Shown here: positions 11,244-64,000 of the stretch, piece by piece
Position numbering within the stretch: position 1 is the stretch's first letter
Layout: the number at the start of each line of letters is the position of its first letter
NCBI GenBank assembly: GCA_964502565.1
Contig: CAZCXA010000002.1
Coordinates: forward strand, 648-64,647
Length of the DNA: 64,000 nucleotides
From: an uncultured Pseudomonadales bacterium
GTDB taxonomy: Bacteria > Patescibacteriota > Microgenomatia > UBA1400 > PJMF01
Reading direction: 5' to 3'
The notes under the pieces: model-generated
The model's database searches: none
The model's input: only the letters and a program-made list of their open reading frames with translations
Told to the model about the DNA's origin: nothing
Translations under genes and position numbers: made by a program

Positions 11244-11995
11244 TTGTTTGGTATTTAGCCTTGGAGTGTGGTCACCCCAGCTTAAAACGGGAGTTTGCCG
11301 TCTCCCATCCTATTCAGGAATCTCTCTAGATTGTTTTGGATTTTGCGTACACGACTTTCACGCTCTTTGGTCACTAATTCCATAGTGTTCTGCTATCCGC
11401 CACTCTCACATGTGAGAGTCCTACAACCCCCCTGTAAACAGGGGTTTGGGCTGTTCCCGGTTCGCTCATCGCTTACTAAGGGAATCTCTTACGATTTTTT
11501 TTCCTCCGGGTACTAAGATATTTCAGTTCCCCGACTTACCCCCGTGCCGTAAACGGCACAGTCATCTTGCTCTCACAAGATGGGGTTTCCCCATTCGGAC
11601 ACCGACGGGTTATGTGCTTTTTGCCAGCTAACCGTCGACTTTCGCGGGCTATACGTCCTTCATCGGCCAAACAAGCCTAGGCATTCGCTTTCTACGTTAG
11701 TTCACACAAGTTTAGTTAGACCCAAGGGTCTAACAAGATATTGAATTTGAAATTGAACTATTTTGACGATGTTTTCTTCACATGTTAAAGAGCGAAAGGA
11801 TGTTTTCATCTCTCGCAGTAGCCTCGCTGTCTGATTCTGTCAGACGCGCGTTGAAAACTGTTCAAGATGTTAAACATTCCTTATATTCAGTAATCTTTTA
11901 ACCGGTTCATTTTATTTTTTTCAAGCAACTTCCAAACATTTCTGATTTGCTAACCAAAAAGCAAGGTGTTACAAGAGACAATAAAAAGAACCCTG

Positions 11996-12069
11996 TGGAC
12001 CTGGGGAGACTCGAACTCCCGGTCTCTTCGTTGCAAACGAAGCGCTTTAGCCAACTAAGCCACAGGCCC
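11996..12069 (-). tRNA. tRNA-Ala (anticodon UGC)
   Basis: Reverse complement is GGGCCTGTGGCTTAGTTGGCTAAAGCGCTTCGTTTGCAACGAAGAGACCGGGAGTTCGAGTCTCCCCAGGTCCA. It forms a cloverleaf with anticodon loop UUUGCAA and the G3:U70 Ala identity pair. No CCA is encoded. It sits in the spacer upstream of the 23S. Confidence 0.9.
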
Positions 12070-16794: not shown

Positions 16795-18015
16795 ATGAAC
16801 ATTGCCCAAAAATCTTCCACCCCTGTTGCAGGCTCATCATCTACCGCAAACACTGGCTATAACCCACCCACAGGTTTTAATCAGCCTAAGCCGGCCACCA
16901 CACATGAGGCCGCCCATTTAACTCAGCCTAAAAAAAGTTTTGCTTTTCAAAGTTTAGAAGAAAGACAAGCGAGACAAGAACAAGGTGAGCAGATGCAACC
17001 AGAGCCGGTAGACAAACTGCAAGGATCTGGAACCGCATTTAATCCTCCTGGTGGAACACCTCCTAGTACTGTTCCAACTGTCGAAAACAAACCACCCATG
17101 CCAGACAAGCTTGAATCAAAAACAAAAAAAACTTCAGTAATTATGTTGGTTGTGGCGTTCGTCTTTATGCTCCTTACTGGAGCTGGATTGTTTTACATAA
17201 CTCAAATTTTACCTGAACAAGAAGTGCCAACCGCCCCGGTCTCAGAGCCAGCAGCAGCTCCAGTAACACCTGGAGCCGAGAGTGCTCAAGTTTGTTCTTT
17301 AGTATTTTCACTCCAGACACCAACTGATGGGCCAGAAACCACCCCAACGCCAACTGATGGGCCAGAAACCACCCCAACACCAACTTCTACTCCAACGCCC
17401 ACTTCTACTCCAACACCAACTTCTACTCCAACACCAACTGATGGGCCAGAAACTACTCCATCCCCAACTGATGGGCCAGAAACCACCCCAACGCCAACTT
17501 CTACTCCAACGCCAACTTCTACTCCAACGCCCACTTCTACTCCATCCCCAACTGATGGGCCAGAAACTACACCAGGAGTCACTGCAACAACAACACCAAC
17601 TGATGAACCGACCACAGCACCAGAAGTGACCGTAACAACCACATCAGCGCCTGAACAGCCGACCACAACCACGACTACCACATCACCGTCTCACACAACC
17701 ACAACTGTCTTGGCACCAACCACCCCTCCAGCTCAACCAGCCCAAACAGTTACAAAAATTGTAGATACTCAAGCTGACTGTAATCAAGCCTGTTCTACCA
17801 ATGCAGACTGTCGCAATATTAGCCATATTTGCTACAACAGTCGTTGTCGGTTAGATATCAATCCTGAAGATGACCAATGCCGTACCCCAGCTGGTGAAAC
17901 CACTGTGGAACGAGTGGTTGAACAACCGGTGGCAGGATTTAGCAACTGGATCAACTTTTTAAGAATTGGTATCGGTGCAATCGGAACTGGTTTGCTTCTA
18001 CTATTACTACTATAA
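16795..18015 (+). CDS. Pro/Thr-repeat surface protein with a Cys-rich C-terminal module and C-terminal hydrophobic anchor
   Basis: Internal TM around residues 120-140. Repeats PTDGPETTPT and PTSTPT. A 6-Cys cluster DCNQACSTNADCRNISHICYNSRCRLD. Ends in ...GTGLLLLLLL. Confidence 0.6.
   Translation: MNIAQKSSTPVAGSSSTANTGYNPPTGFNQPKPATTHEAAHLTQPKKSFAFQSLEERQARQEQGEQMQPEPVDKLQGSGTAFNPPGGTPPSTVPTVENKPPMPDKLESKTKKTSVIMLVVAFVFMLLTGAGLFYITQILPEQEVPTAPVSEPAAAPVTPGAESAQVCSLVFSLQTPTDGPETTPTPTDGPETTPTPTSTPTPTSTPTPTSTPTPTDGPETTPSPTDGPETTPTPTSTPTPTSTPTPTSTPSPTDGPETTPGVTATTTPTDEPTTAPEVTVTTTSAPEQPTTTTTTTSPSHTTTTVLAPTTPPAQPAQTVTKIVDTQADCNQACSTNADCRNISHICYNSRCRLDINPEDDQCRTPAGETTVERVVEQPVAGFSNWINFLRIGIGAIGTGLLLLLLL
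17310..17580 (+). repeat. Coding tandem repeats (30-bp PTDGPETTPT units and 18-bp PTSTPT units)
   Basis: Direct reading shows ccaactgatgggccagaaaccaccccaacg x4 and ccaacttctactccaacgcc x6. These generate the spurious antisense ORFs in the track. Confidence 0.8.
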
Positions 18016-35513: not shown

Positions 35514-37304
35514 CTACTTTGCCTCTGCAATCCCTGCCAACTCATCCAACCCGGTTGCCTGTTCCCAATCTTTGTCTTGTCTAAACTTCACCAATCTAGG
35601 AAAACGCAAGGCTTTACCTGCTGTATGTAAGGGAGAAGCTGTTAGCTCGTCAGCCGCAATCTCTACCACGATTGCTGGAGCCACCCAGACATCAGGTTTT
35701 AACTCCTTAGGAACGTCATACTGCTGAGGCATGACCTTCGCAAAGTTATCGTCCGCCAGCTGTTTAATATGTTTAAACTCCTTGTCGGTTAAGCCGGTGC
35801 CGATTTTAGCAATAGTTTTAACCTTTTTCTCTTTGTTTAACACACCGACCAAAAATGCTCCAATACCAAACTGGGTTCTTTTACCCTTGCCTCGGTAATA
35901 CCCCATGACCACACAGTCTAGAGTGTCGTTAAGTTTACCCCGTGTGCCCTCTGCTTCTTTGATCTTTACCCAGCGCCAACCTTTGCGACCAGAGCGGTAA
36001 ACCGAGTCAACCTTTTTTATTAATGCCCCTTCTAAACCTAGTTGTAACTGACGAGCGTGATAACTCTGCACCTCTGCTGGATCAGTGGTAATCTTAAACT
36101 CGGTTAACTCGATCACATCATTGGACCGCACGGTCTGAGCTAGTACTTGCTTGCGCTTGGCTAACTTTTCATTAATCAAGGATTTGCCGTCTAAAAACAA
36201 GATGTCAAACACAAAAAACTTGATCGGTACTTTTTTAGATTGTCTACTAATGCCATATTTTCGTTTACGAGTAATGGTTTCTTGAAAAGGTAGTAACTCT
36301 TTAGTTTTTGGATCATAAGCAATCGCTTCAGCATCTAAAATGCAGTTGTTTGCTTTAATTTGCAACAAAGATTTCTCAAGCTCAGGAAACATATGGGTGA
36401 CATTGTCTAGGTTGCGCGTAAAAACTTGATAAGAATTTTTTTGATTATTTTTATCAACATGAATTTGCGTACGCAAGCCATCATACTTAGGCTCCATCAT
36501 CACTCTGCCCATCTTCTCAATAATTTCCTGAGCAGTGTTAAGTCGCTGACACAATGCAGGTAAAACCGGAATACCTAGTTGCACCTGGTAGTTGTTAAAA
36601 AACTGTTGCACCTCTTGATCGGTTTGAGTTTGCAGATAACCCTGAGCCAACTGGCCAATATCAGCTTTTTTTTGATAAGTAGCCTCAATCTTTTTACTGT
36701 CAGTCTTACTGTTCAAACGCGCCCAAGAGAGAGCATCAATCATGGTCATGGTAGAAAACCCAAGTCGCAACTTGCCAATAATAATTCGTGTCACAAACTT
36801 GATTGAGGTTAGATCAAGTTTTTGTAACAGCTGTTGCGTTTGAACAATCTTTCTCTCTTGAGAGCCCTCACCTTCCTCTTGAGCGATCCTTGATAATGCC
36901 TGATGCACCTCCAGGATAGTTAGTTGTTCTGGGTTTAAGTTTAAATCCTTTACCAGTTCCTCAATCACTAAACCCAAATCACCCAGTTCCTTGTTCTTTT
37001 GCTGAATTTTTTTTAGGTAGAGGCTGTCGTCTGATTCATTAAATAATCCTGGTGAAGACAAAGGCTCATCTTGATTTAAACAGTTTAACAGTTTGGCTAA
37101 GGCTCGCATGGTGAGTTTCTCACTCATACCAAACTCTAACGATTGGTAGCTTGGAACCAAACCACCCAACATTAAGTAGCACGCCTGAGGAGTTTCTTCT
37201 GTTTCAAGTTTTTTAAACAACTCAGCTAAAAGTGATGTCATCTCGAGTCGTGAGTTGAGTTGTTCTAGTTGATCTAAATAATGAGCAAAACTGGAAAATT
37301 GCAT
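35514..37304 (-). CDS. ATP-dependent DNA ligase
   Basis: Adenylation motif MMEPKYDGLRTQIHV (KxDG), then OB-fold-like motifs ...GLEGALIKK..., ...WVKIK.... Confidence 0.85.
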   Translation of the reverse strand: MQFSSFAHYLDQLEQLNSRLEMTSLLAELFKKLETEETPQACYLMLGGLVPSYQSLEFGMSEKLTMRALAKLLNCLNQDEPLSSPGLFNESDDSLYLKKIQQKNKELGDLGLVIEELVKDLNLNPEQLTILEVHQALSRIAQEEGEGSQERKIVQTQQLLQKLDLTSIKFVTRIIIGKLRLGFSTMTMIDALSWARLNSKTDSKKIEATYQKKADIGQLAQGYLQTQTDQEVQQFFNNYQVQLGIPVLPALCQRLNTAQEIIEKMGRVMMEPKYDGLRTQIHVDKNNQKNSYQVFTRNLDNVTHMFPELEKSLLQIKANNCILDAEAIAYDPKTKELLPFQETITRKRKYGISRQSKKVPIKFFVFDILFLDGKSLINEKLAKRKQVLAQTVRSNDVIELTEFKITTDPAEVQSYHARQLQLGLEGALIKKVDSVYRSGRKGWRWVKIKEAEGTRGKLNDTLDCVVMGYYRGKGKRTQFGIGAFLVGVLNKEKKVKTIAKIGTGLTDKEFKHIKQLADDNFAKVMPQQYDVPKELKPDVWVAPAIVVEIAADELTASPLHTAGKALRFPRLVKFRQDKDWEQATGLDELAGIAEAK

Positions 37305-37409
37305 GATTAATTAAAAAGTTAAAATATAAAAAACCAGATCTCAAAAGTCCGCATTAACAGGGAAAACCAGGTAAGCTTTACATTATTATTTTGTTTTGAC
37401 TTTTGATCT

Positions 37410-38510
37410 TTATCTGTCCATTAAACTGTATGTCACTCCCTTGGTCACACCATGCTTCTTGATCACTCCTTTTTCAATCAAGTCTTTCAGATCTCGAAGA
37501 ATTGTATCAACCGAGACATTGGGTAGCAAATCTTGAGCATCAATCGAGCTAATCTCTCCCTGCTCTTGCAACAACTCTAAAATTACAATCTGTCTTTCTG
37601 ATAAAGCCACCTGACGTCCCAACTCCTTTTTCATCTTTAAATCCTTAGAAAGCTTTAGCACTTTTTCTTTAACCTTATCAACCTCGATTGCCAGTCCATA
37701 ACAAAAATATTCCAGCCAATAAGTCATATCTGATTTTTCAGTTTGCTGAACTGACTGCAGGGCGCTGTAATAACTCTCAACATCTTCGTCAAAATACTCC
37801 TCAATTGAAAAAAACCGTTTAAAATCATAGCCTGACGCATAAAGTACGAGCGTAGTCATGGCGCGAGCAGTGCGACCGTTGCCTTCAATAAAAGGATGAA
37901 CATAAACAAGCTGATAATGTGTAATGGCAGCGCGAAAAATCGGGTGAATCTTTTTTGAATCAGAATGATTTAACCATTTAAAAAAATCCTCGATTAAATA
38001 TGGAACCTCCACTGATACAGGCGGTCTAAACACTATTTTGTTTGCGCTTTCTCCCGCGCCCTTCACTATCACTTGTTTGCGCCGATAGCGACCAATCTGA
38101 TCCTCCATTAGTAAATTATTCATGGTAAGTCCATGAAGATGACTTAGTGTTTTTTCAGAGAATAAATCTTTAGAGAGTTGAGGGTCTTGCGCATCAATCC
38201 AGTTAATGACATTGCGGTAGTTAAGAACTTCTTGCACATCGCGTTCGCGAGCAATAATGCCAGCTTTTTTAGCCACTTCCTCAGGATCATCAACCAACTC
38301 TAATCGAGTCACTCTTTGAGCTTGATCTTGAGTTAAATCATTACCCTCAATCTTTGTCCCAAAGTGAATGGTGCGCGCCATTGCATCTTTTTTAAACTTT
38401 GCCTCCCAGGCAGGAACTAGCGGAGAGTGGTCGATTAAAGCTCGAGCTGACTCAACCGCGCTCACATAAGTTAAAAGGTTGCTGGTTATCTCAAAATTAG
38501 GTTTAAACAT
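37410..38510 (-). CDS. Fic-family protein (AMPylator-type) with a C-terminal winged-helix
   Basis: Fic motif HPFIEGNGRTAR. The C-terminus (LSERQIVILELLQEQGEISSIDAQDLL...) is wHTH-like. Confidence 0.8.
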   Translation of the reverse strand: MFKPNFEITSNLLTYVSAVESARALIDHSPLVPAWEAKFKKDAMARTIHFGTKIEGNDLTQDQAQRVTRLELVDDPEEVAKKAGIIARERDVQEVLNYRNVINWIDAQDPQLSKDLFSEKTLSHLHGLTMNNLLMEDQIGRYRRKQVIVKGAGESANKIVFRPPVSVEVPYLIEDFFKWLNHSDSKKIHPIFRAAITHYQLVYVHPFIEGNGRTARAMTTLVLYASGYDFKRFFSIEEYFDEDVESYYSALQSVQQTEKSDMTYWLEYFCYGLAIEVDKVKEKVLKLSKDLKMKKELGRQVALSERQIVILELLQEQGEISSIDAQDLLPNVSVDTILRDLKDLIEKGVIKKHGVTKGVTYSLMDR

Positions 38511-41259: not shown

Positions 41260-41634
41260 ATGACAAGTTTTTTTCAAAAACACCTTCAGTTGCCTTTGGT
41301 CAATGGTGCTGACCAGCCAATGAAGCTAGGCGATCAGCTCTTATTAAGAAACAATCAAAAAGTATCAGAAGTTTATGACACTCCTGGTACGATCGTCAAC
41401 TTAGTGGTGAGTAATCTTTTTTTGTTAGCAGGTATTGTTATCCTCTTTCTTATCATCCTGGCGGGCTTGAGTTATATTAAAGATAGTGAAAAAGGTAAAG
41501 AGGAGGCAAAGAACTTGGTCACAGGTGCAGTCATTGGCTTTGTCGTGATGTTTTCTGCGTATTGGGTTATCCAAATTATCAAACTTATTACTGGGGCAGA
41601 TATACCCATCCAGATACCAAAGATACCTATCTAG
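41260..41634 (+). CDS. Pilin-like paralog 1 of 7 (two-TM hairpin with KGKEEAK loop); VirB2/TrbC-like T4SS pilin candidate
   Basis: TM - SEKGKEEAKNLVTGAVIGFVV - TM. The most divergent member and lacks an obvious signal peptide. Confidence 0.4.
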   Translation: MTSFFQKHLQLPLVNGADQPMKLGDQLLLRNNQKVSEVYDTPGTIVNLVVSNLFLLAGIVILFLIILAGLSYIKDSEKGKEEAKNLVTGAVIGFVVMFSAYWVIQIIKLITGADIPIQIPKIPI

Positions 41635-41691
41635 AAACCAAAGACACTCATTTAAATAAAGTTTAATACCAAAAATTAAAATACTGAGTTT

Positions 41692-42162
41692 ATGAAAAAA
41701 AAGTCTTCAAATTCCTTAAATAGTTGCTGGCATAAAACTTTGACTTTCTTCACCATTTTTGTGACAATCTCTTTAGCTATGCCTCAAACACTTTTAGCAG
41801 ATGATGAGACCACAAGCATCTTTGGTGAGATTGCTCCGCCTCCGGGAGTAAATAAATATCAAGCTGAGGTTGAAAAAGTGGGAGGACAAGTTGGCATCAT
41901 CCTTTTTCTTTCCAACATTATTAGGCTAATCACTGTTGCGGCTGGAATCTGGGTCATGTTTAATCTTATCTCAGCTGGTTGGCTTTATATCAACTCGTCA
42001 GGAGATTCTGGCGCAACTGAAAAGGTGTCTGCAAAAATTACCAACAGCATCATTGGTCTAGCTGTAGTAGCTCTGTCATATACTCTTGCGGGTGTGGTTG
42101 GTTACTTAATTTTTGGAGACGCCGGGTTTATTCTTAACCCAGCACTTTTTACTATTAATTAA
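41692..42162 (+). CDS. Pilin-like paralog 2 of 7 (signal peptide + two TM)
   Basis: Signal peptide ...ISLAMPQTLLADDETT. Core AGWLYINSSGDSGATEKVSAKITNSIIGLAVV. Confidence 0.5.
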   Translation: MKKKSSNSLNSCWHKTLTFFTIFVTISLAMPQTLLADDETTSIFGEIAPPPGVNKYQAEVEKVGGQVGIILFLSNIIRLITVAAGIWVMFNLISAGWLYINSSGDSGATEKVSAKITNSIIGLAVVALSYTLAGVVGYLIFGDAGFILNPALFTIN

Positions 42163-42224
42163 ACCCTAATTTTCAGAACTACGCACTTATTAAATCGTCG
42201 ATTTTAACCAACTCCAAAACCGAT

Positions 42225-42641
42225 ATGACCTCAATAAAAATCTTAACAAATTTAATACAACTTACAGGACAGTTTGGTAATGATGGGTTTCAGCCCCCCA
42301 CTGACGCTTACACCGAAGGCGCTGACACCAACCCAGGATTAATCAAGATACTAGCGACAGGTATCTCCAATGTAATTGGAATCTTAACTACTTTGGCTGG
42401 TCTGTTTTTTATTTTAAACTTTTTTTTAGGAGCGGTTGGTTGGATTACAGCAGGCGATGATACTGGCAAGGCTGAAAAGGCAAGAACTAGAATCATGAAT
42501 GCTGTTGTTGGTTTGGTCATTGTTGTGGCATCTTATGGTGTCATTGGCCTGATTGGCTCAATGATCGGTATCGACTTTATTAATATTGGAGAGATTTTAG
42601 AAAAAATACATCCAGGAAACTTAGTTGATGGATTAGGCTAA
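42225..42641 (+). CDS. Pilin-like paralog 3 of 7
   Basis: Core VGWITAGDDTGKAEKARTRIMNAVVGLVIV between two TM helices. Confidence 0.5.
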   Translation: MTSIKILTNLIQLTGQFGNDGFQPPTDAYTEGADTNPGLIKILATGISNVIGILTTLAGLFFILNFFLGAVGWITAGDDTGKAEKARTRIMNAVVGLVIVVASYGVIGLIGSMIGIDFINIGEILEKIHPGNLVDGLG

Positions 42642-42698
42642 GTTTAAAAAAATTTTTTAATAACAAATAAATTATCATCTTTAATTTACAAAAATAAT

Positions 42699-43109
42699 AT
42701 GCTTAACTCTTTTATGGATTTTTTTAATAAATTTTTTGCTTCAGCTGTTTTTGCTGATGAATCAACCAGCACCGATGGTCAGATTATTAATCCAGTTATT
42801 GGAGAGTGGGGTAAAAATCCAGAAAAGGCAACTAGTGGTGTGCTTTTTGCTGAATATGTTGTACGAATCTGGCGAATAGGCATTAGTGTTGGCGCCTTCG
42901 TCGTGGTCTTGTTTTTTATTATTGCCTCATATGAGTGGTTAACCAGTGGTGATGATACCAAAGGTGTTGAAAAGGCTAAATCTAGATTTACCAACGCCAC
43001 GATTGGCTTGGTTTTGCTCGTGGCTTCTTTTGTGATTGTTGGCTTTATTGGCGTATTATTATTTGGAGATGAGTTTGATATTCTTCACCTTACTTTTCCA
43101 ACTAATTAA
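42699..43109 (+). CDS. Pilin-like paralog 4 of 7 (signal peptide)
   Basis: Signal ...ASAVFADEST. Core YEWLTSGDDTKGVEKAKSRFTNATIGLVLL. Confidence 0.5.
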   Translation: MLNSFMDFFNKFFASAVFADESTSTDGQIINPVIGEWGKNPEKATSGVLFAEYVVRIWRIGISVGAFVVVLFFIIASYEWLTSGDDTKGVEKAKSRFTNATIGLVLLVASFVIVGFIGVLLFGDEFDILHLTFPTN

Positions 43110-43139
43110 CTCATCAAGCAACAAATTAACTCTTTTTTT

Positions 43140-43631
43140 ATGATCCAAAACTTACTCGCAGACGCAGCCGTTCAACCAGAAATTAATCTTAGGGAAGAAG
43201 GTTCAAAAGTTTTACCATTCGGAGAAAACATGAATAAACCAGGAGATAATAGCGGTGTTGTTTTTTCGATTATTAGTTCACTGCTAACCGTGGTAGCCAT
43301 TGTGGCTGGAGTGTTGCTACTTGTTAACTTGATTTACGCCGGTATTCAGTGGATAGCCGCTGGAGGAGATTCCGGCAAGCTTGAAAAGGCGCGCAATAGA
43401 ATCATGCACTCAATTGTTGGCTTTGTTATTTTTGTCTCGGCAATATCTATATTTATGCTGATCCAGAACTTGCTCAATATTGAGTTACTCAAGTTTTCAT
43501 ATAAAAAACACAAACCGAACATTACTTCCTACTCCTGCTGTACTGTGAACCAGGAGTGTGTTGGCTTTATTGGTAATGGGGAAGAGTTTGGTTGCACCAA
43601 TATAACCCGAGCCTGCGAGTCTTGTAAATAA
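43140..43631 (+). CDS. Pilin-like paralog 5 of 7 with a Cys-rich C-terminal extension
   Basis: Core IQWIAAGGDSGKLEKARNRIMHSIVGFVIF. C-terminal SYSCCTVNQECVGFIGNGEEFGCTNITRACESCK (7 Cys). Confidence 0.5.
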   Translation: MIQNLLADAAVQPEINLREEGSKVLPFGENMNKPGDNSGVVFSIISSLLTVVAIVAGVLLLVNLIYAGIQWIAAGGDSGKLEKARNRIMHSIVGFVIFVSAISIFMLIQNLLNIELLKFSYKKHKPNITSYSCCTVNQECVGFIGNGEEFGCTNITRACESCK

Positions 43632-43839
43632 ACATAATTAAAATATTTTTTTTACTATTTATATCAAGATTGCGATCAAGTTTAACCTCAATTTTTACAA
43701 AAGTTATAATGCATATTATGCTAAAAAATGTTTAATGTATTGTGCAAATTTTCAAATCTTTGACTTTTTCATTTAAAACCTGATAAAATATCAATTAGAC
43801 TAATAATTAATTAATATTTTAAAAAATTAAGGAGAAAAT

Positions 43840-44226
43840 ATGAACAGAATTTCTAAATCAATTATTGGAGTCGGGGTGTCGGTTGCCTCAACTTTTGCTT
43901 TAGCATCTCAAGTAATGGCCGACGAACTTGGTATAGAGGGCACGGTTGAGATTCCAGAAGGCTTCTTTTTTACAGATGCAGAAGGTCTTGTGTCAACAAT
44001 ACTGCGTGCCGTTATGCTAATTGCTGGTTTGCTGGTCTTTGCTTATCTTATCTGGGGTGGTATTGAGTGGATAACCTCAGGTGGTGACAAAGGCAAAACA
44101 GAAAATGCCAGAAATAAAATTACTGCTGCGGTTATCGGTTTGGTAATCTTGGCAGCTTCCTATGCAATCTTCCAGATTGTACTTTCTCTACTGGGAGTGC
44201 AGGGATATAAAGGAATCTTTGGATAA
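43840..44226 (+). CDS. Pilin-like paralog 6 of 7 (signal peptide)
   Basis: Signal ...ALASQVMADELG. Core IEWITSGGDKGKTENARNKITAAVIGLVIL. Followed by a rho-independent terminator. Confidence 0.5.
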   Translation: MNRISKSIIGVGVSVASTFALASQVMADELGIEGTVEIPEGFFFTDAEGLVSTILRAVMLIAGLLVFAYLIWGGIEWITSGGDKGKTENARNKITAAVIGLVILAASYAIFQIVLSLLGVQGYKGIFG

Positions 44227-44254
44227 TAACCACTTTAAAACCATTAAAGTATTA

Positions 44255-44281
44255 AAACCCTCGGCAACGAGGGTTTTTTTA
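44255..44281 (+). terminator. Rho-independent terminator after pilin-like gene 6
   Basis: AAACCCTCG-gcaa-CGAGGGTTT followed by TTTTTTT. Confidence 0.7.
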
Positions 44282-44395
44282 TTAATTAAAATCTTTTTAG
44301 CTGAGTCTTTACAATTCCTGTTATATAATAGATTTATTAAAAGATAGTCTTAAAGAACTACCTACTTAATTATTTATTATTTTCTGTAAATCATT

Positions 44396-44854
44396 ATGAA
44401 AAAATCAAGAGTCCTTAGTGCTTCAATGCCAATATTTTTTTTTCTTGTGATCACCAGCCTCTTTCTTCCTCAAAAAATTCAAGCTCAAGTTAGCCCTCAA
44501 GAATGGGAACCTGGTTTGTGTCAAATCGATGGCGTAGCCACTGTTCAAGGAGTTGGTTGCCTACTGGCTAACATCTTATCTGTAGCCTTAACCGCTATTG
44601 GCCTAGTTGGATTTGTGATGCTGGTTGTGGGCTCAATGAAATGGCTTTTATCTGGTGGCAATACGCAAAATGTGGAAAGTGCCAGAAAAACCATGACCTG
44701 GGCGTTTGTTGGTTTGGGCGTTGCTCTAGGCTCATTTTTAATGATTAACCTAATTGCTCAATTTACCGGCATCAATGTTATTACCGAGTTCTTTATTCCA
44801 TCTAGCGACACTGGGTTGCCAGGACAGACTCAGTGGCAAAACATTGGCCAATAG
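44396..44854 (+). CDS. Pilin-like paralog 7 of 7 (signal peptide)
   Basis: Signal ...LFLPQKIQAQVS. Core MKWLLSGGNTQNVESARKTMTWAFVGLGVA. Confidence 0.5.
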   Translation: MKKSRVLSASMPIFFFLVITSLFLPQKIQAQVSPQEWEPGLCQIDGVATVQGVGCLLANILSVALTAIGLVGFVMLVVGSMKWLLSGGNTQNVESARKTMTWAFVGLGVALGSFLMINLIAQFTGINVITEFFIPSSDTGLPGQTQWQNIGQ

Positions 44855-54983: not shown

Positions 54984-56099
54984 TCACTCATTTACCCTAA
55001 AGGGCATCACTATGTAAATATACTCACTTAACTCAGGCAGGCAAAATGCCACTGGTTTTAAACTCTCGTTAATGCAAACTTTAATAGTGCTTGGCTTAAC
55101 ACTGTTAAAAAAATCCATTAAATATCTAATGTCAAACGCCACCTCTATATCCGAGAGAAACGAACTTGATTTAATTACAGGAATTGTTCCAAGATACTCT
55201 CCAAATGAGGTAGTGATTGACTTAATCAGTAGACTCTCTTTTTTTAACTCAACCCTGACAATGTTGGATGCTTCCCGAGCAATAATGGAAGCTTTCTGGA
55301 ACTCCTGCTCGATCTCCTCGCCAGAGACCTCAAACTCCAGCTTAAAATTCTCTGGAATAATCTTTTCATATGGAGGATAATCACCCTCAACCAATCTGAT
55401 AAACATCTCGTTTTCTCCGATAACAACCTTGATTTGTTTCAGCTCTTGGGAAACTTGGAGTTTAACCTCATCCACACCTACCTGATCAACAACCCTACAA
55501 ATCTCCTCAAAAGCTTTAATCGGCATTAATATTTTTTGATTAAAATCAAGTTTTTGCTCAGGGTATTTATTAATAGCAAGACGAAAGCCATCTGTTGCTA
55601 CCACCTCCAAACCCTGCTTGCTGAAATCTAGCATAATAGTTGTAAGAATCGGTCTCACCTGATCTCTACTAGAGGCAAAACTAATTAAAGAGTTAATCTC
55701 TTGAATAGTTTCTGATGATAAGTTAATCTCTTCACCCTTAATGGCTGGAAAATCAGGGTAGTCTGAGGGAGCGTTGATCGGTAGCTTAACCCTGCTAGTT
55801 CCGGCACTCACAACAATCTCTTTTTCCTTAATCTCTAAAGCAACATCCTTTGAGCTCAGAGAGCTAATAACATCTTTAAACATTTGTCCTGGCACCGCGA
55901 TTGATTTTTTTTCATTATTTTCAATATCGATTGTGGTTCTGATTCCTAGATACAGATCGGTTGCTGATAAAACAAGCTTGTTTTTTTTAAACTCAAACAA
56001 GATAGAGGAGAGGATAGGTAACTGAGGGTTGCTCGGAACAGCTTTTGAGATACTTTTAAGTGAGTTTTGTAAGTTTTTTAGATCGAGTTTAATTTTCAT
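54984..56099 (-). CDS. dnaN: DNA polymerase III beta subunit (sliding clamp)
   Basis: 371-aa three-domain clamp. N-terminal MKIKLDLKNLQNSLKSISKAVPSNPQLPILSSILFE... Immediately downstream of dnaA. Confidence 0.85.
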   Translation of the reverse strand: MKIKLDLKNLQNSLKSISKAVPSNPQLPILSSILFEFKKNKLVLSATDLYLGIRTTIDIENNEKKSIAVPGQMFKDVISSLSSKDVALEIKEKEIVVSAGTSRVKLPINAPSDYPDFPAIKGEEINLSSETIQEINSLISFASSRDQVRPILTTIMLDFSKQGLEVVATDGFRLAINKYPEQKLDFNQKILMPIKAFEEICRVVDQVGVDEVKLQVSQELKQIKVVIGENEMFIRLVEGDYPPYEKIIPENFKLEFEVSGEEIEQEFQKASIIAREASNIVRVELKKESLLIKSITTSFGEYLGTIPVIKSSSFLSDIEVAFDIRYLMDFFNSVKPSTIKVCINESLKPVAFCLPELSEYIYIVMPFRVNE

Positions 56100-56436
56100 A
56101 ATGAGTTTTTACAAACTTATGTTTTTGATTTTACTAATAATAATTATTTATCTTTTACTCTCTATTTTAATCTTTTATATAAAACTAGTAATAGTAGTAA
56201 TAGAGGTTGTTGAAAAGTGGAAAATTACGATTATCCTATCTTTAAAAACGAGTAATTTAGCTGTGACTAAGTTATTAATTAATCTTAATTAAAACTGGAA
56301 TGAGTGTGATAATCTTTTGGAAAAATTATAGTTTACGAATTAGATATTAACATTTTAGATATTTATCAAGAATTAATTCAGAGGATATCAACATAGTTTT
56401 CCACAAAAGTGGAAAAGTGATTGTATTTTTCCTATT
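56100..56436. promoter_or_regulatory. Candidate oriC / DnaA-box cluster (dnaA-dnaN intergenic, >75% AT)
   Basis: DnaA-box-like 9-mers TTTTCCACA (56397-56405) with its inverted partner AGTGGAAAA (56408-56417), which forms a palindrome, plus AGTGGAAAA at about 56216. A TTTTTCACA box also lies upstream of dnaA at about 58311. Confidence 0.4.
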
Positions 56437-58008
56437 TTAATCTGATAACTTAAGTAATTTAGATTTTAATTCTGAAAAATCCTGCATCATTATCTCATCT
56501 TCTTCCAGCATTTTTTCAATCTTGTTTTTAGCATGCATCACCGAGGTGTGGTCTCGATTTGAAAACCATTTACCTATCTCAACATAAGATAAGTTTAGAC
56601 TATCTTTTAAAAAGTACATCGCAATATGCCTTGGATAAACCAGCTCTTTATTACGACCACGCCCTCTTACCTCTGACTGTTTAACATCAAAATGATCGCA
56701 GATTTTTTTAATTACCTTTTGAGGCTTTAGCCTGATGGTTCTGGGTCGTCCATTGGTTTTTTCTTTTTGCAGAATGTTGTCAATCAACTCATCATTAATC
56801 TCTTTACCATTAAGTTCTACCTCTGATCTAATAATCGAGATCACACCCTCAATCTTTCGCGCGCTATCAACACTAGTGGCGATCTTGGTGGCAATCTCCA
56901 TTGGTAAAGAGATTCCAACCGAGCGAGATTTAATCAACACAATGGCAATCCTAAGTTCTAAAGATGGTTGTTGAATATCAATCATAAGACCTGCCTCAAA
57001 CCTGGATTTTAAACGGTCTTCTAGAAGAGTAATGGCGTCTGGGGGTCGATCAGAGGTTAAGATAATTTGATGAGACAGCTTGGTAAGCGCATCAAAAGTG
57101 TGGAAAAACTCTTCTTGAACAGCATTTTTGCCAGCAATAAACTGAATATCATCGATTAATAATACTTGAGCACTTCGAAACTTCTTCTTAAACTTGATTG
57201 CTTTTTTACTCCGAATCGCATCAATAATCTCGTTAGTAAAATCCTCACCAGTGCAGTAGATGACGTTTTTACTTGGATCTTGCTTAATAGCATGGTGACC
57301 AATGGCGTGCATGAGATGGGTTTTGCCCACACCCACCCCACCATAAAGAAAAAGCGGGTTGTAGGCCTCTCCGGGACGTTTTGCAACCGCGGTTGCTGCA
57401 GCATGAGCCATCTCATTACTGCCAGATACGGCAAAGTTTTTAAAGGTATAATCTGGTCTTAAACCAGCGCGTCTAATAGCAGTGGTTATTCTATCTTGTT
57501 GCGTGTTGGCAATGTTTTGTTGAGAAAATAGATCCTCCACCCTAACAGACTCCAAGTCTTGAGACTCGATAACTCTAAGACCGTTGGTGGTTAGTTGGCT
57601 GTTTTGATTGAGGTTTTGTGATTGACTGGGTTGATCTTGAAACGAGCTTTTGCGTAAGTTTCGGTTGACTCTATAACCCTGTCTATTACTTTTGAATGAC
57701 ATCTCTTTTTGCTGAGATAAAATTTGAGAAGGGTCTTGAATCTTGAAATCGAGAGTAACTTTTTTGTTCAATGCGTGCTCAAGCGCAGACTTAAGTTGTA
57801 GGTAAAGGTTTTTTTTAAGATTGGTTGCATGAAAAGCGCTGGGGGTAGAGATAACACCTACCGCTTCTTGAGTGCTGTTAATCTGAACCTCGGTGAGCGG
57901 GTTGGTTAGAACCCAAGTGCTAAAGGCAGCTGGAGAGAGTTGGGGTTCCAGCTCTTTTTTAACCTGCGACCAAATGTTCTTTACTTCTTGAGGTGTAAGG
58001 GTTTGCAT
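56437..58008 (-). CDS. dnaA: Chromosomal replication initiator protein DnaA
   Basis: AAA+ Walker A GGVGVGKTHLMHAIGH, sensor motifs, C-terminal DNA-binding domain ...VYPRHIAMYFLKDSLNLSYVEIGKWF... Confidence 0.9.
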   Translation of the reverse strand: MQTLTPQEVKNIWSQVKKELEPQLSPAAFSTWVLTNPLTEVQINSTQEAVGVISTPSAFHATNLKKNLYLQLKSALEHALNKKVTLDFKIQDPSQILSQQKEMSFKSNRQGYRVNRNLRKSSFQDQPSQSQNLNQNSQLTTNGLRVIESQDLESVRVEDLFSQQNIANTQQDRITTAIRRAGLRPDYTFKNFAVSGSNEMAHAAATAVAKRPGEAYNPLFLYGGVGVGKTHLMHAIGHHAIKQDPSKNVIYCTGEDFTNEIIDAIRSKKAIKFKKKFRSAQVLLIDDIQFIAGKNAVQEEFFHTFDALTKLSHQIILTSDRPPDAITLLEDRLKSRFEAGLMIDIQQPSLELRIAIVLIKSRSVGISLPMEIATKIATSVDSARKIEGVISIIRSEVELNGKEINDELIDNILQKEKTNGRPRTIRLKPQKVIKKICDHFDVKQSEVRGRGRNKELVYPRHIAMYFLKDSLNLSYVEIGKWFSNRDHTSVMHAKNKIEKMLEEDEIMMQDFSELKSKLLKLSD

Positions 58009-58482: not shown

Positions 58483-60555
58483 TTATTCTTCTGGCTCTTG
58501 ATAATCATCAATCGAGTGTTGACCATAAACCACAGCTTGTTGACTAATATCAGTGGCTTGAGCCACATTATCTCTATTGTCTTGTAAGCCAGTTGCTTCA
58601 TCTTTAAGCTGGTTGGGTTCATCATGTGATTGACGAGCATTACCTGTAGGCAACACTTGCTCAATCTCAGCTTCATCCTCTTCTTCATAATATGGTTGAG
58701 TATTGGTGTTGTTCGTGAGTTGATCAGTGTGATACTCGGCTTCTCTTGCCTTTTTTCTTGCCAACAACTCGTTGGGATCGGTGGTAATCATGTAGTGCTC
58801 CTCTGGACTTGCAACCACGCGTAGGGCAACATGGTTTTGTCCAACAAAAAAGATGCCCTCTCCCACGTCAGCCGTTACCAAAAGTTGTCGTTCTCCGTTG
58901 GAAAGGTGAAAGGTTTCGGTTAAGGTGTTGATTGAAACCGTGGACTGTTTCATCAACAGTCTAATTGATGCATTAGACACAATGGCTTTGCCAAAATTAT
59001 TGTCTAAAAAGTCCTCTACATCTTGAGTGATGGTGGTGATAGCTAAAAAATACTTTCTAGCTCTTTTAGTCATGGCATAAATAAAACGCGCGCTATCTGG
59101 GTGTTGCATAAAATACCAAGCCTCATCAATTACCAGCAACCGTTTTTTAAAATCTTTTTTAACCTTTGTCCAGATAAAATCTAGGATAATATACATCGCA
59201 ATCGGTCTTAACTCTTCTTCCATCTCTTTAACACTAAACACGGTCAAGGGATTTTGAATATTAATGTTGGTGGGTTTATCTAAAATACCTCTAAAAGAGC
59301 CGGTGATAAACTTTTCCAAGCGCGCGACCAAGTCATCGGCTTGATCATTTTCCATACCAGCTAGGGCTTTATAAAGATCCTCCATTAAAGGTGGAATGTT
59401 TTTTTGAGTAGCTGGATCAGGGGTAATACCCTTAGCCTTATAAGAAGAGACTAGCGCGCGGTCCAAAAGCGCCTCTTGCTCAGAAGTCATCTCGCCTAGC
59501 ATAACTTTTAACAAACCATGTAAAGATAAAATTTTTTGTCCGAGCTCATTAGATCCCTCCTCATAAACCTGCGATAGATCAAAAGGGTTAATCTTTGCTT
59601 TAGAGCCAAAGGTAAAGTTAATATACTCACCACCCACGGTATCACAAAGCTCCTCATACTCTTTTTCTGGATCAAGGACAATCACCTCGGTGTCAAACAT
59701 TAGCTGGCGTAAGATCTCCACCTTAACAGCATAGGACTTACCTGCTCCTGATTTTGCTAGGATTAGCATGTTGTAGTTCTCAAGCTGGAACCTATCAAAA
59801 ATAACCAAGGACTCGTTGTGTTCGTTAATGCCGTATAGGATTCCTTGCTCAGAAGTTAGCTCAGAGGAAACAAAAGGGAAGGTGGTAGCTAAAGAAGTGG
59901 TGTCCATGTTGCGGGCAATGTTCAAGTAGTCAACTCCCATGGGCAGGGTGGTTTTGAAACCGTCTGCCATTTGCAGGGTTGCTTTTTTTGAAACGATCAG
60001 TAGTGAGCCTAGGGTGGACTGCACATTTTTAGTAACCTTCTCCAGCATCTCAACAGAATCAGCCCTGATCGTGGTATAAAGACCAAATTGATAAAACCTT
60101 TCAGCCCCAGCTGCCAACTGCTCCCTGATGTTGCGAGCATCGATCAGTTGAATCTCGGTCGTAATGTTACTAATCTTGCCAGCCCTAATATCAGACTGGA
60201 TCTCAGCCTCCATCTCAGTAATTTTTCTTTTAAGACTGTCTAAGATCTCACCACTGTCCATGGGAAAGATAAACATGGCAGTGTTAAGCTGATGAGGAAA
60301 GTTGATCAACGGTGATAGCCAGTTAGCCGGTACTGACCTAGGATAACCAGCGATAAACAAGGTTCTTGAGTATGAGGAGTTGATCTTTTGAAAAGTGAAG
60401 TCAATCTCGATCGCTTCAGGGGCAATAATATCCTCAATGGTTACCAGACCTTTTGAAAACTCCTCGATTTGTCTTAACTCCTCTTTTTTCTTAAGGTCTT
60501 GTTCTTCTTCAGCAGTTGTTTTTTTTAAAAATGGAAAAGGTAGATCAAGCTTCAT
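58483..60555 (-). CDS. virB4: Type IV secretion system ATPase VirB4 (Gram-positive/Tn916 Orf16-like)
   Basis: ...RTLFIAGYPRSVPANWL..., ...TTLPMGVDYLNIARNMDTTSLATTFPFVSSEL..., Walker A LAKSGAGKS, Walker B LLVIDEAW. Acidic C-terminal tail. Confidence 0.75.
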   Translation of the reverse strand: MKLDLPFPFLKKTTAEEEQDLKKKEELRQIEEFSKGLVTIEDIIAPEAIEIDFTFQKINSSYSRTLFIAGYPRSVPANWLSPLINFPHQLNTAMFIFPMDSGEILDSLKRKITEMEAEIQSDIRAGKISNITTEIQLIDARNIREQLAAGAERFYQFGLYTTIRADSVEMLEKVTKNVQSTLGSLLIVSKKATLQMADGFKTTLPMGVDYLNIARNMDTTSLATTFPFVSSELTSEQGILYGINEHNESLVIFDRFQLENYNMLILAKSGAGKSYAVKVEILRQLMFDTEVIVLDPEKEYEELCDTVGGEYINFTFGSKAKINPFDLSQVYEEGSNELGQKILSLHGLLKVMLGEMTSEQEALLDRALVSSYKAKGITPDPATQKNIPPLMEDLYKALAGMENDQADDLVARLEKFITGSFRGILDKPTNINIQNPLTVFSVKEMEEELRPIAMYIILDFIWTKVKKDFKKRLLVIDEAWYFMQHPDSARFIYAMTKRARKYFLAITTITQDVEDFLDNNFGKAIVSNASIRLLMKQSTVSINTLTETFHLSNGERQLLVTADVGEGIFFVGQNHVALRVVASPEEHYMITTDPNELLARKKAREAEYHTDQLTNNTNTQPYYEEEDEAEIEQVLPTGNARQSHDEPNQLKDEATGLQDNRDNVAQATDISQQAVVYGQHSIDDYQEPEE

Positions 60556-60707
60556 TGTGGGTTAAAATTAGGTGTTAAAATCGATAGATTATAAAAAAAG
60601 TTTAAAAAAAGTAGTTTTAAAGTATTGTTCTTAATGATAAATTAAATAATCATTTTTAATAGTTGATAGTAGTTTTTTAAGACCATCTTTGGTAGCAACT
60701 AGACCCC

Positions 60708-62261
60708 CTACATTATTTCTGGGATAGGTGGTGGATTATCACCTTGTGTTTTAGCAACCTCATTGGGTTGTTTAACCTGACTACTATCTGTTAACTCATT
60801 TGGTTGAACTGATAATTGAGGCTCACTTGTAGTGGCTTGCGAGTTGTCTTTTGCTGGCGTTTCCACAGTTTGTGTATCTGTTTTTTTATCAGGCTCGGGT
60901 AGATTAAAAACCCCCACCTCTCGAAGCGTGTTGTTAACTGCCTGCTGGGGATTGGGGTGAGTCTGTGATTTTCTGGGTGTAGCATCTTGTTCTTGATCAG
61001 GTTTGGGTTGGGACTGGTTGGCTGATGTGTTATTACTAAAGTTTGCTTTGAGATTTGAGAAGTCCGGCACACCTTCTTGAAAGTCTTGAGGATGGTCGGT
61101 TGTGTCTACAGGGGTGATTAACTGTTGAAACTGTTCCTGTGCTTGTTCGGGAGTAGTTCTAGAAGGTTGATCATAAATAGACTGTTCTTGATTTGTGGTC
61201 GGGAATGATGGGGCCACACCAACTGTATTATTTGCTGAACTAGTGTCAAAGGCTTGATCAAGTTGGTTGGCTTGTTGTTCAAACTGCTGGTTAAGTTCTT
61301 GATCAAGTTGATGAAGCTGGTTATGGTCTGGCAGACTTTGCTGGCTAAGTTGGCCAGCCTGATCTGTGTGATCAAGCTGGGTTGGGTTTTCATATACTGA
61401 TTGGTCAAAATATTGAGTTGAGACTGGTTTGCCAAATTGATCAAACTGCTGGGTCTGTGTTGGTTGTGGTTGGTCTACGGTCATGCTTGGTTGTTCAGGT
61501 TGGTCAAACTGATCATTTAAAGACTGCGGTATCGGTTGGTCTGTAGGTAGGGCTTGATTTAAGGGGTTGTAATCATCTATTATGCTTGCCTTGACCACTG
61601 CTGTTTGATACTCCTCGGTGTTCGTGCCTTCAAAACCCTCGCTAGCCTCAGGATTATAGTTGGTGTAAAAGACCCGAATGATTTCTTGAGTAGTGAGTTG
61701 CCAGGACACCAAACCAATTCTTGCAAACTGACTAATTAGATGATCTCTTCTGGGCTCAAGAATCGCTTGAGCCTTATCAACCAGCACGGTTTTTTCATAC
61801 TTGGTTATGTCAAAAACATCTCTACCCGGAATCACGCTCTCGGCTGAAAGTAGCTCAAGCTCTAGGGGTGTGGCAGGAATGATCACAAAAAATTTTTTAT
61901 CTAACACGTTTCTTTCTTTAATAAGATTGGCAACAAACTCTCGATAGCGAGCAATCCTCTCTCCCTGCGGAGAATGAAAGGTTTCATTCTCTTTTTCTTT
62001 AAGCAGGTTAAGATATTTAGTAACGTCCTTGGTTTGTGATTGAATTATTATCTGGATGGGGTAGTTAAGGGAGTTGAGTAGGGCTGCATAGGTGTAGATG
62101 ACTGCATCTTGTTCATCCTCTGCCAACAAGCCAAAGTTCATGGCGCTGACCCCCAAGATTAAACTTGCGGTACCGTTTTTAAGCAGTATTAAATCATTGG
62201 TGATATCATAAATCTCTAAAAACTCTTGAGTAGCAGATTTGTATTTGGACTTTTCTAACAT
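60708..62261 (-). CDS. Hypothetical T4SS-associated protein: ~230-aa globular N-terminal domain plus ~280-aa Q/P/N-rich disordered C-terminus
   Basis: Immediately upstream of virB4 on the same strand. No motif recognised. The antisense ORFs in the track are low-complexity artefacts. Confidence 0.4.
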   Translation of the reverse strand: MLEKSKYKSATQEFLEIYDITNDLILLKNGTASLILGVSAMNFGLLAEDEQDAVIYTYAALLNSLNYPIQIIIQSQTKDVTKYLNLLKEKENETFHSPQGERIARYREFVANLIKERNVLDKKFFVIIPATPLELELLSAESVIPGRDVFDITKYEKTVLVDKAQAILEPRRDHLISQFARIGLVSWQLTTQEIIRVFYTNYNPEASEGFEGTNTEEYQTAVVKASIIDDYNPLNQALPTDQPIPQSLNDQFDQPEQPSMTVDQPQPTQTQQFDQFGKPVSTQYFDQSVYENPTQLDHTDQAGQLSQQSLPDHNQLHQLDQELNQQFEQQANQLDQAFDTSSANNTVGVAPSFPTTNQEQSIYDQPSRTTPEQAQEQFQQLITPVDTTDHPQDFQEGVPDFSNLKANFSNNTSANQSQPKPDQEQDATPRKSQTHPNPQQAVNNTLREVGVFNLPEPDKKTDTQTVETPAKDNSQATTSEPQLSVQPNELTDSSQVKQPNEVAKTQGDNPPPIPEIM

Positions 62262-62407: not shown

Positions 62408-63308
62408 TTAATGACGATGTGATCTAGAGTGCTTTTGAAAAAAATCCTGGGAAATACTTGGCAAAGTTGCTCCTATAAAGATCATGATGCCTCCCAAAAT
62501 CGTGGCTAAGGACAGAGCTTCTTTTAAGATAAGCCAACCGAAAAAAGAACCGAACATTATTTGTAAAGGCATAATGATTGTTCCAAGCTGGGCCTCAACT
62601 TGTCGAAAACCATAGATTGAGAGGTTGACAGTCGCAACCGTGATAAGACTAAAGAGCATGATCCACAGCCAGGGTGAGCTTGGAACTAATTGAGGAAGAG
62701 GTTCTTTAAAGCAGAGACTTAACAACAAACAGATTACAAAACATACAAAAGCATCCACAAAAGCCAGCTGAAAACTGCTGTAAAAACTTGAAAACTTTTT
62801 GGAAAGTGTGTTCCACAGACCAGAAGCCAGTCCGGCCATTAATGCAAAAAGAACAAAAACCAGTTGATTGGTTTGAACGACGCAAGAGTAGATTAAATAA
62901 ATTGCAAAAAAGATTAAGACAAGAGAGATGAGTTTGATAAGATTGATTTTTTCTTTAAACAAGATCTTGCCTGACAAAAATCCGCTAACTATTGTGGCAG
63001 AATAAAGTAAAAAATAAACCGCGCTTATGGGGAGGTTGGCATAAGCAATAAATGAAAAAAAGGACAAATATTGGGCTCAACAAGCTCCAGGGGATGAGCC
63101 ACTTGAGATGTTTTTTTTGAATCTTTTTCCAATGTGTTTTTGAGGTGAGGATAAAAACACTCAGCAGGATGCAAACCAAAACTCCTCTAACCCAGCCTTG
63201 TGAAAAATCTCCAAATCCAGTTGCGATAAATCGTGAGCAGATGCCATATAAACCATAGAGCGCAGAGGAAGTTAAGATAGCAAAAAAGCCTTTAGTTTTT
63301 TTTGGCAA
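62408..63308 (-). pseudogene. EamA/DMT-family transporter disrupted by a frameshift (two overlapping ORFs, 63308-62985 and 63067-62408)
   Basis: Both ORFs have EamA-like TM repeats and overlap by 83 nt in different frames. An A7 homopolymer lies at about 63054-63061. Either a genuine pseudogene or a sequencing indel. Confidence 0.45.
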
Positions 63309-63399: not shown

Positions 63400-63540
63400 T
63401 TTAGCTAATTAAATATTATTGCCACACTTTGCGTTGATAGTCCTTTTTGTTAACAACTCCTTTTTGCTAGCAACCTCTTTTAGTTAGTAACCTCTGTTTA
63501 TCAACAACCTCTTTTAGTTAGCAACTATCTCTACTGGGTC
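63400..63540. repeat. Degenerate tandem repeats (~15-17-bp units: gttaacaactccttttt / gctagcaacctctttta / gttagtaacctctgttt / atcaacaacctctttta / gttagcaactatctcta)
   Basis: Read directly. Lies between the 63514-63894 ORF and the EamA remnant. Confidence 0.55.
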
Positions 63541-63894
63541 AAGAATAACTCCAGTGAGTTCTATCTGTTGCGGATTAAACTCAAGGCCTTCTTTTTGAAC
63601 CTGAATAAAATATCTGCCATTATTTAATCCCTGGGAGATTTGAAATTGACCTAAAGCATTGCTTTTAACAGCAGTGATGGTTTGCATCTCACTGTTTTTA
63701 AGCTCAACCAGAGCATCGCCAATCAAGTTATTGTCTAGAGTTAAGATCATGCCCACGATCTTGTTGGGCTGGGTGGGTTTATTGGGAAATGGTAAATCTT
63801 GCCTTTGGCTAGCAACCTTTACGATGGTTGCGTTGTGTGGAGTTTGTGCAACCTGATTGTCTTGAGACTGGTCACTATCTTTTTCAACAGCCAC
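63514..63894 (-). CDS. Hypothetical protein, possibly the C-terminal part of a longer gene running off the window end
   Basis: 126-aa ORF. The reading frame stays open upstream toward position 64000. Confidence 0.3.
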   Translation of the reverse strand: MAVEKDSDQSQDNQVAQTPHNATIVKVASQRQDLPFPNKPTQPNKIVGMILTLDNNLIGDALVELKNSEMQTITAVKSNALGQFQISQGLNNGRYFIQVQKEGLEFNPQQIELTGVILDPVEIVAN

Positions 63895-64000
63895 TTGTTG
63901 AGAGTTTAAAAAATCATCTTGAAGAAGATCTGTTGGTTGGTTGATATTATCTAATGTTTTTTTATCAGCGATTTCTTGTTGATAAACTAGAAAAGAATCT

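Follow-up and report, generated by a model that had tools for sequence, protein, structure and literature searches.

The 64,000-nucleotide stretch of DNA analyzed here (positions 648 to 64,647 of the forward strand of contig CAZCXA010000002.1, GenBank assembly GCA_964502565.1; hereafter the window) carries two adjacent minus-strand genes directly beside the replication gene dnaA. We find that these genes very probably encode two proteins, the VirB4 ATPase and a TrsD-like helper, that belong to the chromosomal type IV secretion system (T4SS) of the ultrasmall Patescibacteria. The machine would descend from the conjugation apparatus of monoderms (class MPF_FATA) and have lost its mobile-element functions. 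The VirB4 gene (virB4) occupies positions 58483 to 60555 and encodes 690 aa, while its partner gene occupies positions 60708 to 62261 and encodes 517 aa, both exactly where an earlier note on this sequence had placed them. The two genes are no lone pair: they close a conserved operon that runs past the end of the window and reads into dnaA, and a pilin array and a coupling-protein-like gene lie elsewhere in the window.

A short VirB4 ATPase and its TrsD-like partner

All three VirB4 signatures reported previously (FIAGYPRSV..NWL, TTLPMGVDYLNIARNMDTTSLATTFPF, and VIDEAW) are present in the translation of the 690-aa open reading frame (ORF). The protein scores 371.6 bits with NF045971, the NCBIfam model named 'VirB4-like conjugal transfer ATPase, CD1110 family', which has a cutoff of 325; residues 30-577 align to positions 177-733 of the 752 in the model. 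Pfam matches were obtained to P-loop_TraG (E 6.7e-27), AAA_10, and DUF87, and the solved C-terminal domain of Thermoanaerobacter VirB4 (4ag5) was recovered at E 4.7e-48, with R388 TrwK a weaker match. The Walker A motif, AKSGAGKS (residues 267-274), fits the pattern [AG]x4GK[ST], the Walker B motif is LLVIDE (residues 473-478), and both are invariant across an alignment of 53 VirB4 homologs. On these matches the protein is assigned as a VirB4 ATPase with intact Walker motifs and predicted ATPase activity. An AlphaFold2 (AF2) model of the full-length protein, built from the same 53-sequence alignment, was poor (mean pLDDT 53).

The earlier note had assigned this ATPase to the Orf16 type of Tn916, which proved to be the wrong subtype. 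For this comparison we used pCF10, which bears both PrgJ and the Tn916-family element Tn925. Orf16 of Tn925 aligned over 84 residues, confined to the Walker B region, and scored 36.6 bits, far below the 146 bits over 547 residues obtained with PrgJ (25% identity) and the 237 bits obtained with the 617-aa TraE of a Bacillus cereus plasmid (residues 23-596; 28% identity over 604 aa). The Orf16 label was rejected on these scores. The alignments instead place the protein in the short TraE/TrsE/PrgJ type of the monoderm MPF_FATA class, in which TrsD is a separate protein, with the best plasmid relatives at 37% identity or less. What it has in common with Orf16 of Tn916 and Tn925, which we take to be an MPF_FA-type ATPase, is membership of the AAA_10/VirB4 superfamily of ATPases from monoderm conjugative elements. 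PrgJ is closer, being annotated to the same CD1110 family and encoded in pCF10 downstream of the PrgI-like membrane protein, but it differs in carrying the N-terminal domain within one chain of 796 aa and in belonging to a conjugative plasmid.

The N-terminal domain of the 517-aa partner (residues 1-230; positions 61572 to 62261, minus strand) appears to supply what the short VirB4 lacks. It matches the NCBIfam TrsD model at E 8.6e-6 and 25.7 bits, below the cutoff of 200. In the model for the Mbov_0397 VirB4, the partner matches positions 99-293 and the 690-aa protein positions 272-877, so the two proteins together tile one long VirB4. A profile of 36 partner homologs, compared using hhalign with the 216-aa ORF that lies upstream of traE on the B. 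cereus plasmid, gave a probability of 96.9% (E 1.8e-10, 171 columns), and a precomputed match to PF26593 ('TraC-like') is recorded for 112 of the 120 close partner homologs listed. A local Pfam scan of the partner itself returned no PF26593 match, and when the TrsD-like profile was compared by hhalign with the N-terminal end of a full-length Brevibacillus VirB4, the match was not significant (E 0.086). When an AF2 model of the domain was searched against the PDB with Foldseek, the ten best hits were all R388 TrwK/VirB4, the best at a Foldseek probability of 0.99.

Gene order agrees with this assignment: in the window and in 12 related loci, the TrsD-like gene lies directly 5' of the short VirB4 gene and 3' of a PrgI/VirB3/TrsC-like gene, and three further loci (L018, L021, and L022) have this order too. 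Judged by profile matches and gene order, the N-terminal domain is a TrsD/TraC-like companion that would provide the N-terminal part missing from the short VirB4. The partner is thus no exotic addition to the system: its N-terminal domain appears to be a standard TrsD/PF26593 companion, and the long tail alone is specific to the lineage. According to a survey of Patescibacteria T4SSs, TrsD is the most abundant T4SS component beside virB4 in this group and is a distant homolog of the N-terminal part of VirB4 (PMC12102498).

The closest arrangement in Firmicutes MPF_FATA systems is that of TrsC-TrsD-TrsE of pGO1 and TraC-TraD-TraE of pIP501. As in the window, a separate TrsD-like protein precedes a short VirB4 missing the first ~180 residues, and a peptidoglycan hydrolase is encoded in the cluster; the B. 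cereus plasmid p30102_3 (L018), representing this type, has a 216-aa TrsD-like ORF, then TraE, then an endopeptidase. Unlike the window locus, these systems are plasmid-borne with a relaxase and a coupling protein, serve DNA transfer, and are without pilins, long disordered tails, or a link to dnaA.

Upstream of the two genes, we followed the operon past the end of the window using two sister contigs (L015 and L016), which show 20 mismatches to the window over 15.5 kb. In the direction of dnaA, its genes encode a 1370-aa M23 membrane protein, a 337-aa protein, a PrgI/VirB3-like protein, the TrsD-like protein, and VirB4. The first gene of the block lies beyond the window (L015 positions 554-4666, plus strand of L015), and its 1370-aa product begins with a long hydrophilic stretch, contains two or three segments resembling transmembrane helices, and has a C-terminal Peptidase_M23 domain (37.6 bits), making it a candidate for a fused VirB6/VirB1-like component. 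The 337-aa protein has one N-terminal transmembrane segment and would be single-pass. The PrgI/VirB3-like gene enters the window with its 3' part (63514 to 64000, minus strand) and runs off the window end; its 349-aa product combines an N-terminal PrgI/VirB3-like domain, containing two transmembrane-like windows, with a CarboxypepD_reg-like C-terminus. The PrgI match covers the full profile at 25.2 bits (E 2.4e-5), and the position of this gene upstream of the TrsD-like gene is kept in 13 of 14 related loci. Between the PrgI-like and TrsD-like genes of the window sits an EamA-family transporter gene (62408 to 63308, minus strand), apparently split by a frameshift into overlapping ORFs at 62985-63308 (107 aa) and 62408-63067 (219 aa). 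No related locus has a counterpart there; the stretch is identical in sister contig L015, without a listed gene.

Further T4SS parts lie at a distance from the operon. Seven tandem, paralogous genes on the plus strand (41260 to 44854), 14 kb from virB4, encode VirB2-like pilins of 124-163 aa that match PF18895 (T4SS_pilin), six of them with scores over the Pfam cutoff (26.6 bits) and one with 22.7 bits; these are likely the pilus subunits of the same T4SS. A 780-aa homolog of VirD4/TrwB-like type IV coupling proteins (T4CPs) is encoded on the minus strand at 26207 to 28549, with matches to TrwB_AAD_bind (36.1 bits, cutoff 20.5) and DUF87. Its gene is 30 kb from virB4, unlinked to the operon, and is followed by an ArsR-type helix-turn-helix (HTH) gene. 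At the very start of the window (8-1309, minus strand) we also observed a PilO-like gene (weak, 19 bits) and a PilN-like gene (43.8 bits) for type IV pilus assembly, which places type IV pilus and T4SS parts both within 64 kb of the origin.

A fixed chromosomal locus beside the probable origin

Directly downstream of virB4 on the same strand are dnaA (56437 to 58008; Bac_DnaA, E 6e-64), after a spacer of 474 bp, and then dnaN (54984-56099), as the earlier note had reported. The 337-bp spacer between dnaA and dnaN (56100 to 56436, unstranded) has ~25% GC and contains three of the six TTTTCCAC boxes in the window, two of which form the perfect palindrome TTTTCCACTTTTGTGGAAAA. Both the coding strand and the Q/P-rich tail of the partner distort raw GC skew, and it was therefore replaced by the skew at third codon positions (GC3 skew) of minus-strand genes only. 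GC3 skew ranges from -0.06 to -0.44 in the seven genes left of 56.1 kb and from -0.02 to +0.21 in the seven from dnaA rightwards. The dnaA-dnaN spacer is most likely the replication origin, a call that rests on the flip in GC3 skew and the clustering of TTTTCCAC, with the canonical DnaA box TTATCCACA (at most one mismatch) not enriched in the window (23 found, 17.6 +/- 3.8 expected). Given the skew flip at the spacer, dnaA and the T4SS operon would be transcribed toward the origin, so that they meet the rightward fork head-on. In simple scans for promoters and terminators, the counts did not differ from those in shuffled sequence.

Synteny was compared across 14 related genome loci, of which 12 were informative for the dnaA neighborhood. 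PrgI-like and TrsD-like genes precede virB4 wherever the sequence extends far enough, and the order PrgI-like, TrsD-like, VirB4, dnaA, dnaN is kept in 10 of the 12 informative genomes, in which virB4 is followed by dnaA, dnaN, rnpA, yidD, yidC, jag, an RNase H gene, and a DUF4012 gene. Across these loci VirB4 is 69-80% identical to the window protein compared with 50-69% for DnaA, and VirB4 is the more conserved of the two in 9 of the 10; DnaN identity in the loci sharing the dnaA-adjacent order is 27-64%. Conserved order and a VirB4 more conserved than DnaA argue, at the level of sequence, for a vertically inherited gene under strong constraint rather than a mobile element.

These comparisons bear on whether the genes might belong to, or be left over from, an integrative conjugative element (ICE) that inserted beside dnaA by chance. 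The relatives of VirB4 closest to it outside the Candidate Phyla Radiation (CPR) do belong to Firmicutes and Actinobacteria conjugative plasmids and ICEs, at 25-37% identity. Against such an insertion stand the recurrence of the same dnaA-adjacent order in genomes as divergent as their DnaN proteins indicate, the higher conservation of VirB4 than of DnaA, and a GC content of ~0.39-0.41 in the T4SS block, the same as in the surrounding genome. In addition, Pfam scans of 47 window ORFs and of the three genes (6.5 kb) past the window end found no relaxase, integrase, or transposase. With synteny conserved and no mobility genes found in the scanned ORFs of the window and the 6.5 kb past it, we rejected the ICE explanation as very improbable. 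The earlier note's description of a domesticated chromosomal T4SS beside dnaA, outside any mobile-element context, is thus borne out.

The fixed position directly upstream of dnaA, with possible co-transcription, raises the further idea that the two proteins now serve in replication or chromosome handling. Adjacency to dnaA on the same strand, across a 474-bp spacer without a terminator-like site on that strand, is compatible with such a role. Yet the genes have kept their linkage to membrane T4SS parts (the PrgI-like protein, the M23 membrane protein, and the pilins), no DNA-binding domain was found, and in other classes of Patescibacteria the T4SS is not always beside dnaA (PMC12102498). We regard this recruitment as scarcely plausible, and a chromosomal T4SS remains the preferred explanation of the locus.

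The VirB4 homologs listed (n = 120) are 66-100% identical to the window protein, and the named ones are almost all from Patescibacteria, Microgenomates, Woesebacteria, and Pacebacteria, with one title of a Pseudomonadales metagenome-assembled genome (MAG). Based on the organism names of these homologs together with a group I intron in the 23S rRNA gene, the genome is assigned to a Microgenomates-type Patescibacterium of the CPR. Ten related MAG records (L001-L008, L010, and L013) carry the label 'uncultured Pseudomonadales bacterium', while their gene content and protein neighbors are those of Patescibacteria; these labels are probably wrong.

A known Patescibacteria system and its possible function

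The locus is an already known system, matching the descriptions of Wang 2023 (Cell) and Quinonero-Coronel 2025 (Microb Genom), including its location at dnaA and its suggested role. DNA uptake or host interaction, the role put forward in the earlier note, coincides with the hypothesis in the literature (PMC12102498, PMC11665869). Wang 2023 reported an essential T4SS in S. epibionticum (SEML1_0006-0019) with a series of pilins and with no recognizable relaxase or coupling protein described in the cluster (PMC10633639). The T4SS and its pilin array are required for epibiotic growth of S. epibionticum, and its six-gene pilin array, which resembles that of the window, is essential (PMC10633639, PMC12857230). 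In the survey of Quinonero-Coronel 2025, 3,035 genomes yielded 2,425 VirB4 proteins that form a monophyletic Patescibacteria clade within MPF_FATA, with TrsD, PrgI/VirB3, VirB6, and VirB2-like partners and relaxases given as absent, and with dnaA, dnaN, rnpA, and rpmH abundant near virB4 in Microgenomatia and Paceibacteria; its authors proposed a gene-dosage benefit of this location and an import function (PMC12102498). A 2025 T4SS review repeats the survey's account (PMC12857230), and a 2024 perspective called the role 'completely unknown' (PMC11665869).

Shared between the window and the chromosomal T4SS of Patescibacteria are VirB4 with an adjacent TrsD-like protein, a PrgI/VirB3-like protein, arrays of VirB2-like pilins, wall hydrolases of peptidase type, the lack of a relaxase, a distant T4CP homolog, and, in Microgenomatia and Paceibacteria, dnaA and dnaN as neighbors. 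We find no essential difference, and the window is a further Microgenomatia instance and another ordinary example of the published pattern. To our knowledge, no T4SS other than that of Patescibacteria is known to be indispensable for the growth of its owner. The additions made here are modest. The window is a clear Microgenomatia case of a PrgI/VirB3-like gene directly 5' of the TrsD-like gene and virB4, VirB3 homologs having been found mostly unlinked to virB4 in Microgenomatia (PMC12102498). It also offers evidence of a T4SS operon running head-on to replication, to the right of a probable oriC in the dnaA-dnaN spacer. Relative to the three T4SS papers searched (PMC12102498, PMC10633639, and PMC12857230), the features specific to the window are the tail peptides described below, the upstream fusion of PrgI-like and CarboxypepD_reg-like domains, and the head-on orientation.

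What is established for other T4SSs suggests how such a machine might work. VirB4 would form a hexamer that the TrsD-like domain completes and that would dock onto the PrgI/VirB3-like membrane protein and drive, with ATP, the assembly of a translocation channel and a VirB2-type pilus, for which the M23 peptidase would open the cell wall. The assembled machine would act at contact with the host cell, exchanging macromolecules in support of an epibiotic lifestyle, and its position next to oriC could provide high gene dosage or early expression. The disordered tails would probably be flexible tethers that dock both proteins onto each other or onto another component.

Several observations weigh against this account. 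The PrgI match falls just short of the Pfam cutoff (25.2 versus 27 bits), and the TrsD-like model resembles the VirB4 fold weakly (TM-score 0.35, E 3.5e-3, model pLDDT 69.5). No VirB6 or VirB8 is recognizable by sequence at the locus, where the 1370-aa and 337-aa proteins are candidates for these roles. The apparently frameshifted EamA gene interrupts the operon, which makes co-transcription of all five genes uncertain. Function has been tested in one distant relative only, a Saccharimonadia species, and the gene-dosage idea needs overlapping rounds of replication, which are doubtful in slow-growing CPR bacteria.

What the machine carries, and in which direction, is a question already recognized in the literature, and we rank nucleic-acid import and effector export about equally. 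As an importer of DNA or other nucleic acid (compare ComB of Helicobacter pylori and archaeal Ced), the system would feed a nucleotide-auxotrophic cell from its host, a function proposed in the literature (PMC12102498, PMC11665869). A T4CP-like ATPase without a detected relaxase in the window would suit such a machine, and there is a weak match to NCBIfam CedB; however, this match (NF041017) reaches 47.7 bits where the model's cutoff is 700, and neither ComB- nor Ced-specific components turned up. In S. epibionticum, moreover, the T4CP homolog is non-essential although the T4SS is essential (PMC12102498), and loss of comEC had no effect on viability, which indicates that natural transformation is not an essential route for nucleotides (PMC12857230). 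We consider an importer possible and rather unlikely. Delivery of effectors into or onto the host bacterium has likewise been the subject of speculation (PMC11665869, PMC10633639), and the pilin array suggests a contact device; but neither candidate effectors nor secretion signals have been identified, and the operon encodes no coupling protein, so that export of protein effectors is about as doubtful a proposal.

Disordered tails and conserved C-terminal peptides

The two cytoplasmic proteins share a feature that lies outside their folded domains. The partner ends in a tail of 287 aa (residues 231-517; 60711 to 61571, minus strand) that is rich in Q (18%), P (11%), and T (10%) and low in hydrophobicity (18% hydrophobic residues versus 37% in the N-terminal domain). 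Tails of related TrsD-like proteins range in length between 0 and 475 aa and defy alignment. The partner tail closes with the peptide PPPIPEIM (60711-60734, minus strand), and an ending of the form [L/M/P]PP[I/L][A/P]EI, with or without one further residue, is found on the TrsD-like protein in 7 of 12 genome loci. Among 120 close TrsD homologs, 55 have this ending compared with 2.1 +/- 1.6 expected from shuffled tails, matches of this type occur in 2% of internal windows, and 27 of the 50 best cluster representatives at 50% identity carry it.

VirB4 is built similarly. Residues ~600-675 form a variable linker, acidic and Q-rich, after which the chain ends in the peptide GQHSIDDYQEPEE (residues 678-690; 58486 to 58524, minus strand). 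In the 53-sequence alignment, all proteins have Y685 of this peptide, and conservation reaches 90% or more at I682, D684, and P688, while the ~80 columns before it have no consensus; the consensus of the ending reads G(Q/H)(H/Y)(S/T)I(D/E)DY(Q/S).P. Of 14 genome loci, 11 show an ending of the I(D/E)DY..P type and two others (L011 and L014) degenerate SY variants. In the AF2 model, the last 10 residues have a pLDDT of 59 versus ~30 for the linker, values too weak to interpret. The ending of a more distant TrsD clade is PFVVEEL.DDYG, which has an acidic DDY core in common with the VirB4 motif. The contigs of three members of this clade are only 1.7-3.3 kb long, and the homolog search for the full-length VirB4 of this clade returned only fragments of 106-338 aa.

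It is a real possibility, though one we would put somewhat short of probable, that in Microgenomatia both cytoplasmic T4SS proteins bear fast-evolving disordered linkers with conserved end peptides that together constitute a tethered docking system. Such peptides could connect parts of the T4SS motor with each other, with cargo or adaptors, or with some other machine of the cell. The C-terminal tail of the F-plasmid protein TraD, which binds TraM, is a precedent for tethered docking motifs. As here, TraD is a T4SS ATPase with a disordered C-terminal extension that ends in a short acidic/aromatic docking peptide; it differs in being a coupling protein rather than VirB4 or TrsD, and the motifs are unrelated in sequence. 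Neither disordered tails nor C-terminal peptides were found in the three T4SS papers searched (PMC12102498, PMC10633639, and PMC12857230), and the conserved peptides on the disordered tails of both proteins may therefore be new relative to the T4SS literature. They provide handles, through peptide pull-downs and tail truncations, for identifying the partners of the motor.

Outside the T4SS genes, a few features of the window deserve mention. A 406-aa ORF at 16795-18015 (plus strand) has no Pfam match, is locally GC-rich (0.42-0.44), and is overlapped by ORFs on both strands, with tRNA-Ile(TAT) just downstream; its coding status is uncertain. The 23S rRNA gene (7726-12069, minus strand) matches its 2925-nt model over a span of 3705 nt and contains the group I intron at 8390-8691. 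It is flanked by a 5S rRNA gene downstream and a tRNA-Ala gene upstream, with no adjacent 16S rRNA gene, and thus shows the unlinked arrangement of rRNA genes that CPR bacteria commonly have. Finally, an ATP-dependent DNA ligase of the archaeal/eukaryotic type (596 aa) is encoded on the minus strand beside a Fic/DOC protein with a DeoR-type HTH, the two genes together spanning 35514-38510.

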